Positions 7,861 to 49,953 of a stretch of 64,000 bases of DNA are shown here, in pieces. Positions within the stretch are counted from its first letter, which is position 1. The number at the start of each line of letters is the position of its first letter. The position numbers and the translations under genes were made by a program. This DNA comes from a virus: the IMG/VR virus record IMGVR_UViG_3300045988_121676, positions 49,569 to 113,568 of that record. One strand, given 5' to 3'. The notes below the pieces were generated by a model. It saw only the letters and a list, made by a program, of their open reading frames with translations. It made no database searches and was not told the origin of the DNA.

Positions 7861-8760
7861 ATGGATAAAGTTTCTGTTTTTGAAAGTTCGGATTTTGGAG
7901 AGCTTAGAATTATTGTAGATCCAAAAGGAGATGTTTGGTTTGTGGCGTCAGATGTGGCTAAATCTCTTGGATATATAAATGCTAAAGATGCGGTAAAAAG
8001 ACATGTAGATGATGATGATTCTATGCTTTTGCAAGTATCTGATAATCAATGGGGCGTAAAACGATCTATATTGAAAACCAGATATATAGATAGTATAAGA
8101 ATAATTAATGAATCTGGTTTATATTCTCTTATATTATCTTCAAAATTAGAGTCTGCTAAGAGATTTAAGAAATGGGTAACATCTGAGGTTCTTCCTTCTA
8201 TTCGTAAAACAGGAGAATACAAAACAAGTTCAGGCGGCAAGGGAATTTTGGTTCCTGACTTTTCTAATCCAGCAGATGCGGCAAGGGCATGGGCTGATCA
8301 GTATGAAGCTGCTCAGAGAGCTATAGCTGAAAAGTCGCAGGCAGAGGCAGAGAAGCAACAAGCCTTGAAAACAATAGAAGAGCATAAACCTGATGTGGAA
8401 TTTGCCGAGTCTTTTAGGAAAGTAGACCATAATAATATGTGGTTGATTCGTGATATTGCTAAAAAGTTAGAACAGAATGGTGTTATTATCGCCGAAAAGA
8501 ATCTTCGATCATTTCTTGAAGAAGCTAAGTTTATGTTTAGAAACGGTCTTGGAAAATGGGAACTATATAGCAATGTTGTAGCTAAAGGATATGGAGTATA
8601 TAGGTCTTATTTTGTTGATAAATATTCTGGTGAAAGAGTTAATCAACAAACTATCTACATGACAGGATCTGGATACGAAGTGACCCTCAATGGCATAAAA
8701 GGAAAACTCAAAAATGTATTTTTAAAATATGGTAAAATTCTACTTGCTTTATGCAGATAG
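7861..8760 (+). CDS. Bro-N domain / KilA-C phage antirepressor family protein
   Basis: N-terminal FGELRIIVDPKGDVWFVASDVAKSLGY is a Bro-N signature; C-terminal ANT/KilA-C-like region. Confidence 0.75.
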   Translation: MDKVSVFESSDFGELRIIVDPKGDVWFVASDVAKSLGYINAKDAVKRHVDDDDSMLLQVSDNQWGVKRSILKTRYIDSIRIINESGLYSLILSSKLESAKRFKKWVTSEVLPSIRKTGEYKTSSGGKGILVPDFSNPADAARAWADQYEAAQRAIAEKSQAEAEKQQALKTIEEHKPDVEFAESFRKVDHNNMWLIRDIAKKLEQNGVIIAEKNLRSFLEEAKFMFRNGLGKWELYSNVVAKGYGVYRSYFVDKYSGERVNQQTIYMTGSGYEVTLNGIKGKLKNVFLKYGKILLALCR

Positions 8761-9577
8761 TCTTTGATCTTGTTATTCCTTTTGTCGGTTAATGACCTTA
8801 TTTGTTTTGAAATCTGTTTATTGTCTTTTAACTTAGATTTTAAGAATGCTAACCTTTTGTTATAATATTGGTTAATAGACTTTAGTGGTCTACCATTGAT
8901 GATAAAACAAGAACCGGTGTTTGAAACACAAGATGCTAAATTATCCAATCCTATGTCGATGCCAAGATAGTTCCCATTATCGGACATAAGATTCTTTTCC
9001 TTCTTATTGTAAACTATTTCAAGAACAATATACCCATTCTTAGGAATGAATCTAAGTTGTTGAATATTTTGCTTGTTAGTTCTTGTTGTAAAGGAAAACT
9101 GTTTTGGTAACTTAACAATGCCTTGTTTTATCCATTTTTGAGAAAAAGCATTTGTTGCAAAAACAGCAGGAAACAAACCACCCTTGTTGAGATACCTTGG
9201 CATTCTTACTTCCTCAGAATACTCACCTCTATTCTTTTTATTAAAGAGATTGAAGAAAGATTTAAAGTTTCTATCAACCATCATCAATACTTGTTGAGCA
9301 ACCGGTGCTGGTAAAGCACCGGTTGCTCAACATCATTTTCTGTTCTTAACTTCTTTTCAAGAGAATAGTAGTTTAGGTACTTATACTTTACAGTATTATC
9401 ATCCTTGTATTGAAAATAATACTGTCTAACAACATATAACCCTTTATTGTATAAGTTTTTACACTTATGCAATAGATCATAAAGTTCATTGTAATAAACA
9501 GAACTTGGTTTGATCGTATGTTGTTCGACTAATCTCATGACACAAATATAGAAATTATTATTTATATATGAAAACAA
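8655..9577 (-). pseudogene. tnpB: decayed TnpB (IS605 OrfB) remnant: N-terminal HTH-like part (9284..9577) plus frameshifted middle part with RuvC-I (8655..9287); C-terminal half absent
   Basis: MRLVEQH..KNLYNKGLYVVRQ and IDIGLDNLA..INQYYNKR..DYLHKAS align to the intact TnpB at 22525..23736; homology stops where the bro gene ends (~8760). Confidence 0.7.
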
Positions 9578-9681
9578 ATTGGCGTATTTGTGGTGTAAAG
9601 TTGTATATAATTACCTAAAGATGTTAAAAATTGGCTCGAATCTTTACCCAAGATCTGAACCTATTTTTTTTCAATACCAGG

Positions 9682-10010: not shown

Positions 10011-10226
10011 ATGACTGTAGAAGAATTGGTTAATAAAAGATACGGTGGCGAATTTGTTTTCATGTTTGGTCATCTTGAAGGTAGAACAAGATTCGTTTTT
10101 GAATGCTTTGATCCCAGACCTGATCACGAAGGTAAAAACACTTATATGGTTTCCTATTTTGATAAGGGACTTCGTAGAAGAGATGTGGTAGATGTGCCGT
10201 GTTATATGAATATTTTGCCAAAATAA
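10011..10226 (+). CDS. hypothetical small protein (71 aa)
   Basis: ORF in a co-oriented chain of small island genes. Confidence 0.35.
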   Translation: MTVEELVNKRYGGEFVFMFGHLEGRTRFVFECFDPRPDHEGKNTYMVSYFDKGLRRRDVVDVPCYMNILPK

Positions 10227-10429
10227 TGGAAACATTAATCTTAGATGTACCTGTATTTTCCGGTAAGATTATTTCTCCTATCTGGATTAAAGCCGTAAGA
10301 GATTTTCAATCCAAATCGAAGACAGAAAGAGACTCGTATTGTTTGATTTGTGGATGTACAGGAGGGTGTAACTTGTGCGATGATATAAGTAAATATAGGA
10401 TTTCAGAACAATTAAAATATTACAAATAA
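10199..10429 (+). CDS. hypothetical small Cys-rich protein (76 aa; CLICGCTGGCNLC)
   Basis: ORF whose stop overlaps the start of the downstream Tad2-like gene. Confidence 0.35.
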   Translation: MLYEYFAKIMETLILDVPVFSGKIISPIWIKAVRDFQSKSKTERDSYCLICGCTGGCNLCDDISKYRISEQLKYYK

Positions 10430-11160
10430 TGGAATTAAAAGATTCAGTCAGGGTAATGACTAAAGAAGAGTTCGAATCAGCAATCAACGAAGATATTAAA
10501 TTCGTTGAAGGAATTAAGCATTTTTTTAAACATGATGATGCTACGAGGGTAATGGAACACGTAAAGTCCGTGTTAGAGGCATCAGTAGACTACCACTACC
10601 CGAATCATCCTGAACCTGAAGCAGAACCTGGAGACATGGGAGAGGTTTCTGATGGATACCATACTTTCAATGAATTGTATCGGTACCGCATGTTGTATAA
10701 TGCCGCCTTCTTTAATCTATTAGCCAGAAACGGACAGGTTGAAGTTTGCAAATCAAGGAGACACAGCGATGGAGAAAAATGCTTCGGTTCTGATGATTGG
10801 TTTATTGTGATGGCGATCCTACCTACCGGTCAGGTATCTAATCACTATGAAAGCAAATACTGGGATTTGTTTGATGTTCCTGAAAGAGAAACCGCTTTCG
10901 AATACGATGGCCATACACCAAATGAAGCCTCCGACAGACTTGAAAAGTATCTCAAACTGCCTCGTCATGGCATGACATTCGAACAGGCTTTAGAACGGCT
11001 TAAATTAGGTCGTAAGATAAAAAGAATCGATTGGGGTAAAAAGTATATCTGTATGTTTGACGTAAATATATTGATGATAGATACAGGTCAAAAAGTAGCA
11101 TCAAATTGGAATCCAACCGAACATGATATTATGTCTAATGACTGGGAGATTGCGGGATGA
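10429..11160 (+). CDS. DUF2829 / Tad2-like (Thoeris anti-defence 2 family) domain protein with an unknown N-terminal domain
   Basis: C-terminal MTFEQALERLKLGRKIKRIDWGKK...WNPTEHDIMSNDWEI matches the DUF2829 pattern (F.EAL..LK.GKK..R..W ... W.P...D....DWEI), recognised from memory. Confidence 0.55.
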   Translation: MELKDSVRVMTKEEFESAINEDIKFVEGIKHFFKHDDATRVMEHVKSVLEASVDYHYPNHPEPEAEPGDMGEVSDGYHTFNELYRYRMLYNAAFFNLLARNGQVEVCKSRRHSDGEKCFGSDDWFIVMAILPTGQVSNHYESKYWDLFDVPERETAFEYDGHTPNEASDRLEKYLKLPRHGMTFEQALERLKLGRKIKRIDWGKKYICMFDVNILMIDTGQKVASNWNPTEHDIMSNDWEIAG

Positions 11161-11451
11161 GTTTGTATATCCGAAATAACATTAAAACAATATAATTTTA
11201 TTATAAGGTTTTAATGTACCATAAATGGTCCGGATATTAGCCTAAGCCTTGAAACGAAGGCTACGTTATTTAAGAATAGATAGTTACCTACGGATGTTTA
11301 CCCAAGTCTGTAGCTCTAAGGTAAGTGATTAAACAGTTCTGGTATTCAGGAACGGTGTTGCTTACTAAAAACCTTAAATAACATTGGCGATGGGTACTAA
11401 CAGAGTTTTACTCTGACTTATGTTGAATAAACATTAAAAACGTTTGTAGAT
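11161..11451 (+). ncRNA. candidate IscB omegaRNA (guide expected at the 5' end, scaffold up to the iscB ATG)
   Basis: 291-nt ORF-free, stem-rich interval filling the gap between the Tad2-like stop and the iscB ATG, where IscB omegaRNAs are encoded. Confidence 0.5.
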
Positions 11452-12672
11452 ATGGTGTACGTACAAGACATAAATGGTAAACCTTTGATGCCCACAACAA
11501 GGCATGGTAAGGTAAGACGACTGCTTAAAGACAAAAAGGCAGTCGTTGTAAACCTATGTCCGTTTACCATCAAATTAATGTACGTTACATCTGATTACAA
11601 ACAGGAAATTGTTTTAGGCGTTGATGCTGGAACTAAACATGTTGGTCTATCAGCAACGACGAAAAGCAAAGAACTTTACAGCAGTGAAGTAATTCTTAGA
11701 AATGATATCGTAGATCTTTTGTCTACCAGAAGAGAGCTACGGAAAGCAAGACGGAACAGGTTAAGATATAGAAAACCTCGTTTTGATAACAGAGTAAAAA
11801 GCAAGCGTCCAGGATGGATAGCACCTTCGGTGAAATACAAAGTAGACGCCCATATTCGTGTTGTTGAAAATGTTTGCTCTATATTACCAATATCTCGTAT
11901 TGTTATTGAAGTAGCTCAATTCGATACTCAAAAGATTAAGAATCCTGAAATATTAGGTAAAGAATACCAGGAAGGTGATCAACTTGAGTTTTGGAACACA
12001 AGGGAGTATGTTTTAGCAAGAGATGGACATAAATGTCAGTATTGTAAAGGAAAGTCAAAAGATTCTATACTGAATGTTCATCATATTGAGTCTCGAAAAA
12101 CCGGAGGGGATTCCCCTTCTAATCTTATAACTTTATGTGAAACCTGTCATAAGGAATACCATAAAGGTAATATAGATTTAAAGATCAGAAGAGGCAAGTC
12201 GCTTCGCGACGCAGCCGTAATGGGAATTATGAAATGGAGGTTGTATGAAGAGTTAAAATCCAGATACGACAGAGTTTTTATGACGTTTGGTTACATTACG
12301 AAACATAATCGGATTAAATATGGGATTGAAAAATCCCATACATCCGACGCGTTTGTCATTTCTAAGAATATTAATGCGAAACGAATCGAACGTCAATATT
12401 TAAAACGTTTAATTCGTAGACATAATAGACAAATACATAAAATGAAAATTTTAAAAGGGGGGAAGAAGAAAAACAATCAAGCTCCTTTTGAGGTTTTCGG
12501 TTTTAGGTTGTTTGATAAAGTGTTGTATAACAATAAAATATTCTTTGTTTATGGAAGGAGAAAATCAGGGAGTTTCAATATCAGGGATTTCAACGGAGAA
12601 AATTCAAAAGATGTTTCACGCAAAAAGTTTAAACTCATTAGAGGGAAGAGGCATCCGATTATATTAAAGTAA
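11452..12672 (+). CDS. iscB: IscB, OMEGA RNA-guided RuvC/HNH nuclease (Cas9 ancestor)
   Basis: N-terminal PLMP motif (GKPLMPT), RuvC-I GVDAGTKHVGLS, Arg-rich bridge helix RRELRKARRNRLRYRKPRFDNR, RuvC-II IVIEVAQFD, HNH CQYC..NVHHIESRKTGG..CETCH, RuvC-III HTSDAFVIS; 406 aa. Confidence 0.9.
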   Translation: MVYVQDINGKPLMPTTRHGKVRRLLKDKKAVVVNLCPFTIKLMYVTSDYKQEIVLGVDAGTKHVGLSATTKSKELYSSEVILRNDIVDLLSTRRELRKARRNRLRYRKPRFDNRVKSKRPGWIAPSVKYKVDAHIRVVENVCSILPISRIVIEVAQFDTQKIKNPEILGKEYQEGDQLEFWNTREYVLARDGHKCQYCKGKSKDSILNVHHIESRKTGGDSPSNLITLCETCHKEYHKGNIDLKIRRGKSLRDAAVMGIMKWRLYEELKSRYDRVFMTFGYITKHNRIKYGIEKSHTSDAFVISKNINAKRIERQYLKRLIRRHNRQIHKMKILKGGKKKNNQAPFEVFGFRLFDKVLYNNKIFFVYGRRKSGSFNIRDFNGENSKDVSRKKFKLIRGKRHPIILK

Positions 12673-12709
12673 ATGAACGGATTTAATAAATTTAATAGAA
12701 AAACGTATC

Positions 12710-13015
12710 ATGTATAATAAAGAAATAGTAATATGCGCGGCCATCTGGGTGCAGGACGGCAAGAAGCGTCCTCATCAGCCCACCAATATACCATCCGGCG
12801 CCGTATTTTGTGGATTGAGACATTGTTCTATCATTTCTCAGTTTGCGGCATACGGTATAGCTCATAAAAACCGCAGTGTTCAAGGATTTTTGACAAGCAA
12901 GAACCGGTTTCTGACGAGAGAAGAAGCGTCTGAGCTTGTTAAGAACAATAATCAGGAGATGGTAGTAGATAGGAATGCTATTAGAGAACAATTGTATTCA
13001 GAAGATTTATATTAA
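12710..13015 (+). CDS. hypothetical protein (101 aa)
   Basis: ORF 37 nt after the iscB stop; no stretch I can place with confidence. Confidence 0.45.
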   Translation: MYNKEIVICAAIWVQDGKKRPHQPTNIPSGAVFCGLRHCSIISQFAAYGIAHKNRSVQGFLTSKNRFLTREEASELVKNNNQEMVVDRNAIREQLYSEDLY

Positions 13016-49209: not shown

Positions 49210-49953
49210 TTAAAGCGCCTCATCGGTTCCTAAAAGATGCTCATTTCCTTGGTATGGAATACACTCTTTGTATCTCAAACCTCCCAAGCATTCATATTTG
49301 TATTCTTCTTCTCTTACTCTGGCAAATAAGTGTAGATTCCAATTTCCCAAATTGCTTGCTCTCACCAAGACTTGATCGAATGGCTTAAAATCGCATTTCT
49401 TTTCTTTAGTCAGCAAGTATTCGTACTCACTTAGATATTGTTTTATTATTCCTGCTTTTTTAAGGTTTTCTGTATTAGCAATTCTTTCAGCAAAAGATTT
49501 TTTCTCTTCCTCTGTGGCTAATCTAACATACTTGGATTTATCCTCACCACACACACTTGTCCATATTGGAACTTCTTCAGATGTAATCTCGCCATATGCC
49601 GATATACCATATATGCATCCCATATCTCCTTCTCTATTAATAATACCATTATATATAAATGGGTTCCCAAGCGTGCTTATTAATACATCTCCTTTCTTAA
49701 AATACGCTCCAGCCTCTACTTCCAATTCCAGAACGTTGTTGAAAAAAGTACGACCTTCTGTATCGGCATATATAGCACTTATCCCAGATTCATCTTTTTT
49801 TACAAAAAGTAAATTATAACGATCTGCACAGTCTTTTGACTCATATACAAATTCTATTTTAATATTACCAATTAATACTGAACCTTCTATTTCTCCGCTT
49901 TTAATTTTTCTCGCCGTATTTAAATCAAACGGAACAATAATTGGATTTTCCAT
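49210..49953 (-). CDS. hypothetical protein (247 aa)
   Basis: ORF. Confidence 0.55.
   Translation of the reverse strand: MENPIIVPFDLNTARKIKSGEIEGSVLIGNIKIEFVYESKDCADRYNLLFVKKDESGISAIYADTEGRTFFNNVLELEVEAGAYFKKGDVLISTLGNPFIYNGIINREGDMGCIYGISAYGEITSEEVPIWTSVCGEDKSKYVRLATEEEKKSFAERIANTENLKKAGIIKQYLSEYEYLLTKEKKCDFKPFDQVLVRASNLGNWNLHLFARVREEEYKYECLGGLRYKECIPYQGNEHLLGTDEAL

Follow-up and report, generated by a model that had tools for sequence, protein, structure and literature searches.

What might a phage protein do if its C-terminus resembles Tad2, a sponge for bacterial immune signals, and its N-terminal part is about three times as long? The question is raised by a gene in a 64,000-nucleotide stretch of viral DNA (IMG/VR record IMGVR_UViG_3300045988_121676, positions 49,569 to 113,568), referred to here as the window. 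The gene is a complete open reading frame (ORF) that runs from ATG to TGA at 10429..11160 on the + strand and encodes an accessory protein of 243 amino acids (aa), which we call WDGH-Tad2-like. An original prediction, made from the DNA letters, had cited two peptides for this gene, and both were found inside the ORF. A Pfam search of the protein returned two significant domains, a WDGH domain followed by a Tad2-like domain, and an AlphaFold2 (AF2) model of the whole chain had a mean predicted local distance difference test score (pLDDT) of 85. A search of PHROGs returned only families without known function. The reading we favor, and hold with about even confidence, is that the gene encodes a modular phage counter-defense protein, one that would have been made by joining two formerly separate neighboring genes.

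A minimal Tad2-like module follows a WDGH domain

The Tad2-like domain (PF11195, formerly DUF2829) was placed by profile match at residues 182-243 (10972..11157, + strand) and starts at Met182. The match covers residues 182-241 with E=5.6e-11 and 43.3 bits (the gathering score is 25), and 60 residues span positions 1-72 of the 73 in the model. The last 68 aa matched SPO1 Tad2 in a sequence search (E=2.4e-5), and a family profile run against PDB sequences matched Tad2 proteins (E=2e-10). The characterized references for this family are SPO1 Gp34.65 (PDB 8SME), HgmTad2/AcrIIA7 (8KBI) and ModTad2 (9EIB). In the structural model, the module adopts the Tad2 fold, with an N-terminal helix, a five-stranded antiparallel sheet and a short C-terminal helix. 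The elements are ordered α1-β1-β2-β3-β4-α3-β5, and the β2-β3 insert and helix α2 are missing. Both the assignment of the C-terminus to DUF2829/Tad2 and the relationship of its fold to Tad2, as put forward in the original prediction, are therefore borne out.

To compare the putative pocket with a known one, we mapped the published ligand contacts of SPO1 Tad2 (bioRxiv 10.1101/2023.05.01.538930) onto the module via HMMER alignments. Residues W25, I63, T65, W73 and D79 of SPO1 Tad2 are kept as W202, I217, T219, W227 and D233, and S76 is conservatively replaced by T230. The two stacking tryptophans (SPO1 W25 and W73) and the aspartate that contacts the hydroxyls of the ribose (D79) are thus all present. 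Among 30 diverse WDGH-Tad2 fusions, W202, W227, P229 and D233 are invariant. Furthermore, Met182 aligns with Met1 of HgmTad2 ("MTFGQALE..."), the residue at which stand-alone tad2 genes start, indicating that the fusion junction is the former start codon of a tad2 gene.

The WDGH domain (PF25311) spans residues 71-173 (10639..10947, + strand; profile match), with E=4.5e-36 and 123.5 bits (the gathering score is 27). It carries the family motifs SDGxHTFxELYxxR ... KSxxHxDG ... HY ... WDGH. The tryptophan that gives the family its name is Tyr159 in this protein (Y-D-G-H), and every residue that is at least 95% conserved across 112 diverse members is present: D75, H78, T79, R87, N96, K108, S109, H112, H139, Y140, D160, G161 and H162. 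The original prediction had described an N-terminal extension of unknown function. This extension holds a curated domain that occurs in thousands of phage proteins. The remaining N-terminal region, aa 1-62 (10429..10614, + strand), is predicted from the AF2 secondary structure to form a helical hairpin (helices 12-32 and 36-56) and had no match in Pfam, NCBIfam or PADLOC. This region is variable, with unrelated N-termini in its place in other WDGH-Tad2 proteins.

The two modules are found fused, split and exchanged

The original prediction gave the impression of a singular fusion. Instead, PF25311 together with PF11195 is the dominant architecture among homologues, present in 98 of the best 120 clusters. 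In GenBank, the nearest record is that of phage csAssE-Sib (151 kb, from the human gut), which carries the same gene at 94.9% nucleotide identity (WOZ57315.1), annotated as DUF2829 only. Gut phages commonly carry the fusion, which is not unique to the window; the gene is plentiful in gut viromes, and the automatic annotation of Pfam and UniProt already includes this architecture.

Comparison of close relatives revealed that the C-terminal module varies behind a near-constant partner. Relative to the window protein, the N-terminus and WDGH domain of homologue P0013 are 100% and 98% identical while its Tad2 module is only 40% identical; the corresponding values for P0005 are 100%, 97% and 62%. 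On these identities, the Tad2 module is exchanged between genes that are otherwise near-identical. Three Tad2 subtypes occur behind the WDGH core: one with a short insert and a W-G-K motif, one with a mid-length insert and W-K-N, and one with a long, HgmTad2-like insert and the canonical W-N-G. In addition, some relatives are triple fusions in the order WDGH-PF21825-Tad2, with all domains above the Pfam threshold (in P0117, E=1.4e-36, 8.9e-14 and 4.4e-19, respectively). PF21825 is Sequestin, a sponge for 3' cyclic ADP-ribose (3'cADPR) by experiment, which was discovered via its fusion to Tad2 and Acb4 (Tal et al. 2025, bioRxiv 10.1101/2025.07.12.664507). The fusion of WDGH to two unrelated sponge families, Tad2-like and Sequestin, weakly suggests that WDGH has a role in interference with nucleotide immune signals.

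Like the multi-sponge fusions described in that study (Tad2-Acb4 of Pasteurella phage Pm86, Tad2-PF21825 and PF21825-Acb4), the window protein combines Tad2 with another small phage module in one chain, and its modules also occur alone. Unlike in those fusions, the partner is larger (~100 aa, alpha/beta), acidic and not mentioned by Tal et al. 2025. Thus, the multi-module Tad2 fusion is a known kind of protein, and what is new is the partner, WDGH, which had not been described before.

One relative (L007) carries the two modules as separate genes. A 1-nt deletion in the linker, which is either a real polymorphism or a sequencing error (CTGCCTCG to CTGCTCG; L007 2440-2510 compared with window 10960-10975), results in a 226-aa WDGH ORF and a 62-aa Tad2 ORF with an ATGA overlap. 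Comparable stand-alone Tad2-like ORFs of 62-66 aa are present on several contigs of 143-147 kb. As judged from these arrangements, the fusion joined two autonomous neighboring genes. Because the modules occur as separate adjacent ORFs and WDGH is mostly found on its own, two independent activities are favored over an obligatory coupling.

The same arrangements bear on a very different account, in which the fused ORF would be a chance or decaying read-through across two neighboring genes, at a locus worn down by IS200/605-type elements, with no selected joint function. The junction lies exactly at the ancestral tad2 start codon, a single-base indel switches between the fused and split forms, an IscB element lies immediately next to the gene, and 1 kb upstream there is a remnant of TnpB. 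Moreover, in the metagenomic homologues P0068, P0106, P0056 and P0028 the WDGH protein is truncated or the gene continues in frame into an internal fragment of IscB, a fragment from the C-terminus of TnpB or the upstream Bro-N antirepressor. We nonetheless consider this account highly unlikely. In many divergent lineages, with varied Tad2 subtypes and linkers, the fused form is the prevailing one, and the copy in the window is intact and ends with a C-terminus typical of the family. Furthermore, the gene is under purifying selection, with a ratio of nonsynonymous to synonymous substitution rates (dN/dS) of 0.18 for the whole gene and 0.06 for the WDGH domain in the comparison with csAssE-Sib. 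In the Tad2 module, the same comparison yielded 4 nonsynonymous changes, no synonymous ones and an indel, which is suggestive of diversification but comprises far too few changes to be significant.

WDGH is a widespread phage domain whose fold is apparently new

With the WDGH domain alone as the query, an exhaustive HMMER search identified it in 3724 representative clusters (50% identity; E<=0.001). By tblastn, it was found in 197 GenBank phage records of an INPHARED-derived collection, mainly from Listeria, Bacillus and Salmonella phages, and all 197 proteins are annotated as hypothetical. Its carriers include Listeria phages P100 (gp128) and A511 (gp21), P22-like Salmonella phages such as BTP1 (gp06), Lactococcus phage P092 (gp62), and Streptococcus, Klebsiella and Nocardia phages, in addition to csAssE-Sib. 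The domain is ~60% identical between the gut phage of the window and Nocardia phage NTR1. In phages of Firmicutes (Listeria, Bacillus and Streptococcus), WDGH proteins are stand-alone and 100-200 aa long. Those of gut phages are often long, multi-module proteins of 300-640 aa joined by recurring "W(L/I)EKQGE" linkers. Among these, P0130, P0141, P0189 and P0232 contain small modules, including repeated "KPKFKVGDW" SH3-like units, none of which belongs to a Pfam family. Unlike most WDGH proteins, which stand alone or have other partners, the window protein has a C-terminal Tad2-like module, a minority trait found mainly in gut-phage lineages. In BTP1 (L002 2821-3381), the 186-aa gp06 is encoded by an extra gene between the coat and head-tail adaptor genes, an unusual position for a non-structural accessory gene in P22-like phages.

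Modeled on its own, the domain is a compact alpha/beta structure (pLDDT 91.7; predicted template modeling score 0.81) in which a long helix is followed by a sheet of three strands, a short helix and a final helix at the C-terminus. When PDB sequences were searched with a profile, nothing matched the WDGH part, and Foldseek against viral models returned only other uncharacterized "WDGH domain-containing" proteins. Judging by these searches, WDGH apparently has a new fold with no solved relative. Full-text literature searches found no paper describing WDGH or PF25311. Neither DGYHTF nor WDGHTP occurs in the supplements of Hadary et al. 2025, and WDGH fusions were therefore apparently not among the Tad2 proteins tested there.

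We also considered whether WDGH corresponds to either of two described families. Lockin was rejected as a match, as it is a mostly-β hexamer and is absent from INPHARED, and Acb5 was rejected because most of its carriers are phages of Streptomyces and Mycobacterium and its key residues are different (both Tal et al. 2025). A zinc site formed by C107 and C118 was rejected as well, since these cysteines are not conserved across the family.

The set of nearly invariant His, Asp, Lys and Arg residues suggests that WDGH binds a small molecule or has a catalytic role. One explanation that builds on these residues couples the two modules mechanistically: WDGH would be a metal- or His-dependent hydrolase that degrades the signal caught by the Tad2 module. 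Residues D75, H78, H112, H139, D160 and H162, together with K108 and R87, resemble a putative catalytic or metal site, and there is a precedent in Acb5, a predicted sponge that proved to be an enzyme (Tal et al. 2025). In Bacillus phage vB_BanS_Nate (L003 2848-4048), the gene for a stand-alone WDGH protein (gp134, 151 aa) overlaps the start of gp135, which has a Pfam match to NADAR (E=2.8e-39). NADAR is an ADP-ribose-processing family, and a connection between WDGH and ADP-ribose (ADPR) chemistry is possible, if anecdotal. However, the modules are separate polypeptides in relatives and WDGH is usually alone, arguing against obligatory coupling, and we regard a bind-and-destroy enzyme as improbable.

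Evidence for and against a signal-sequestering function

In the counter-defense reading that we favor, the 62-aa module would oligomerize, by analogy with characterized Tad2 proteins, whose ligand pockets lie at the protomer interfaces of a homotetramer, and W202, W227 and D233 would line a pocket that traps an immune signal derived from ADP-ribose. The candidates are signals of the Thoeris/TIR (Toll/interleukin-1 receptor) type: 3'cADPR, His-ADPR, N7-cADPR or a relative. WDGH, as an autonomous and very strongly conserved phage module, would supply an independent activity: it might be a second sponge or an enzyme that degrades signals, or it might serve as a scaffold on which the stripped-down Tad2 module oligomerizes. 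An ADPR-type signal is probably still bound, and thereby sequestered, by the Tad2 module in the canonical pocket between protomers, because the stacking tryptophans and the aspartate are invariant, because selection keeps some Tad2 variant on WDGH and because characterized Tad2 proteins are flexible in their ligands, which include 3'cADPR, His-ADPR, N7-cADPR and cUMP. It is from these proteins that we infer ligand binding, oligomerization and anti-defense activity.

Several observations weigh against this reading, and some of them concern the Tad2 module itself. Its first-tryptophan loop reads W202-G203-K204 in place of the W-N-G found in all solved Tad2 proteins, such that a glycine replaces the asparagine that contacts the phosphate (SPO1 N26, HgmTad2 N22). 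Among 99 fusions, this position is G in 41, K in 28 and N in 26. The water-coordinating residues D67, H71 and T78 of SPO1 Tad2 are replaced by Q221, S225 and H232. Furthermore, the link between β2 and β3 consists of 2 residues, and the two tryptophans are 25 aa apart compared with 48 in SPO1 Tad2, as calculated from residue numbers, and at least 48 in the characterized references. In SPO1 Tad2, helix α2 sits between β2 and β3 and, with β2, makes a V-shaped dimer; in HgmTad2 and ModTad2, the β2-β3 segment forms a second pocket that accommodates cyclic dinucleotides or cUMP. The 25-aa spacing therefore means that helix α2 of the V-shaped dimer, and with it part of the dimer interface, is missing, and a two-residue link makes the whole second pocket impossible. 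The module also differs from Tad2 in sitting behind a 180-aa N-terminal region. Because the loss of the α2 insert and the change of Asn26 to Gly set this module apart from every characterized Tad2, sponge activity should not be assumed, and its affinity, ligand or assembly may differ from those of known Tad2 proteins.

The remaining points against concern the partner and the protein as a whole. WDGH is acidic (isoelectric point 4.8), and described sponges have positively charged pockets (Tal et al. 2025). Only 4 of 148 WDGH cluster representatives contain a Tad2-like domain and 1 of 148 contains PF21825; few WDGH proteins are thus fused to sponges, and those that are come mainly from a single lineage of gut phages. 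There is no recurrent known partner beside the WDGH genes of P100, P092, Javan272, BTP1 and Nate. Finally, searches of NCBIfam and PADLOC with the 243-aa protein yielded zero matches.

An alternative that we consider possible but doubtful is that WDGH is the working part and is unrelated to immune signaling. The domain might, for instance, target a conserved protein of the host or have a function in the metabolism of nucleotides or nucleic acids, and the Tad2 fold would be an accessory sensing or oligomerization domain that is no longer a sponge. Consistent with this idea, WDGH is far better conserved than its partners, as its similarity to the Nocardia phage NTR1 domain and its low dN/dS attest; most of its clusters lack Tad2; it stands alone in the Firmicutes-phage clade; and it is embedded in long gut-phage proteins without assigned function. 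Isolated cases among the 148 cluster representatives, in which WDGH is fused to a GNAT, sigma-70 region 4, Myb or YccV-like domain, hint at other contexts, and the missing Asn26 and α2 insert fit a module that has ceased to bind its signal. By contrast, the tryptophan pair and the equivalent of Asp79 have stayed invariant in the fusions, and the Tad2 module has been repeatedly swapped for other subtypes, including the W-N-G, HgmTad2-like one, rather than lost. In some relatives, an experimentally established sponge, Sequestin, lies between WDGH and Tad2, and the stand-alone 62-aa Tad2-like version is of a size expected for a sponge. These findings argue against this alternative. It is rather unlikely that a stronger version of the counter-defense reading holds, in which WDGH would be a widespread, unrecognized counter-defense family of new fold, either a new sponge for immune signals or an enzyme that degrades them, and the Asn-less Tad2 module would bind a signal other than those of characterized Tad2 proteins.

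The gene lies in an array of accessory genes next to an IscB element

The gene is part of an array of small accessory genes with an antirepressor on one side and a giant structural protein on the other. Its ATG shares a TAATG overlap with the stop codon of an upstream 76-aa ORF (window 10199-10429) that contains the Cys-rich motif CLICGCTGGCNLCDD and has no family match. csAssE-Sib lacks a counterpart of window region 10250-10436.

Downstream, homology breakpoints relative to csAssE-Sib and L007 delimit an IscB element at 11167..12707 on the + strand, outside the WDGH-Tad2-like ORF. It comprises an omega/HEARO RNA at 11192-11401 (Rfam RF02033, 107.7 bits) and an IscB ORF at 11452-12672 with RRXRR (E=1.3e-60) and HNH domains. 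The gene thus lies directly upstream of an IscB element, as had been predicted. In place of this element, csAssE-Sib and L007 carry a 91-aa CxxC-rich gene (MSLFVCSKCGC...), of which only the first three codons (MSL) remain in the window, where they overlap the stop codon of the Tad2 module. Accordingly, the IscB element replaced a gene and was not simply inserted between genes. The next ORF, of 101 aa (window 12710-13015), matched phrog_839 (E=1.2e-16). Its counterpart in L007 has a precomputed assignment to PF26092 (T4_Y16D); the window ORF itself had no match in the local Pfam.

Upstream, on the - strand, a TnpB-like (OrfB_IS605) remnant at 8655-9577 is divided between a 210-aa and a 97-aa ORF, with no RuvC/Zn-ribbon part at the C-terminus. 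Window region 8736-9615 stands for ~3.2 kb of csAssE-Sib that encode a "spike protein" and several small genes. A truncated metagenomic variant of the WDGH gene ends where the Tad2 module starts. The metagenomic variants suggest that IS200/605-type activity and deletions have struck this locus especially often, but some of the variants may instead be assembly chimeras.

Implications for phage anti-immunity proteins

Phage sponges for alarm nucleotides are an active field, and the last new family, Sequestin, was found through its fusion to Tad2. If WDGH is unrelated to immunity, our finding shrinks to one more Tad2-domain protein. That WDGH is fused to a Tad2-like module in many gut-phage homologue clusters, and in some also to Sequestin, is a lead that marks it as an anti-immunity candidate, and the presence of the domain in model phages (Listeria P100/A511 and P22-like Salmonella phages) makes direct tests of anti-defense activity possible. 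The natural, minimal 62-aa Tad2 could, in turn, define the smallest functional unit of a sponge.
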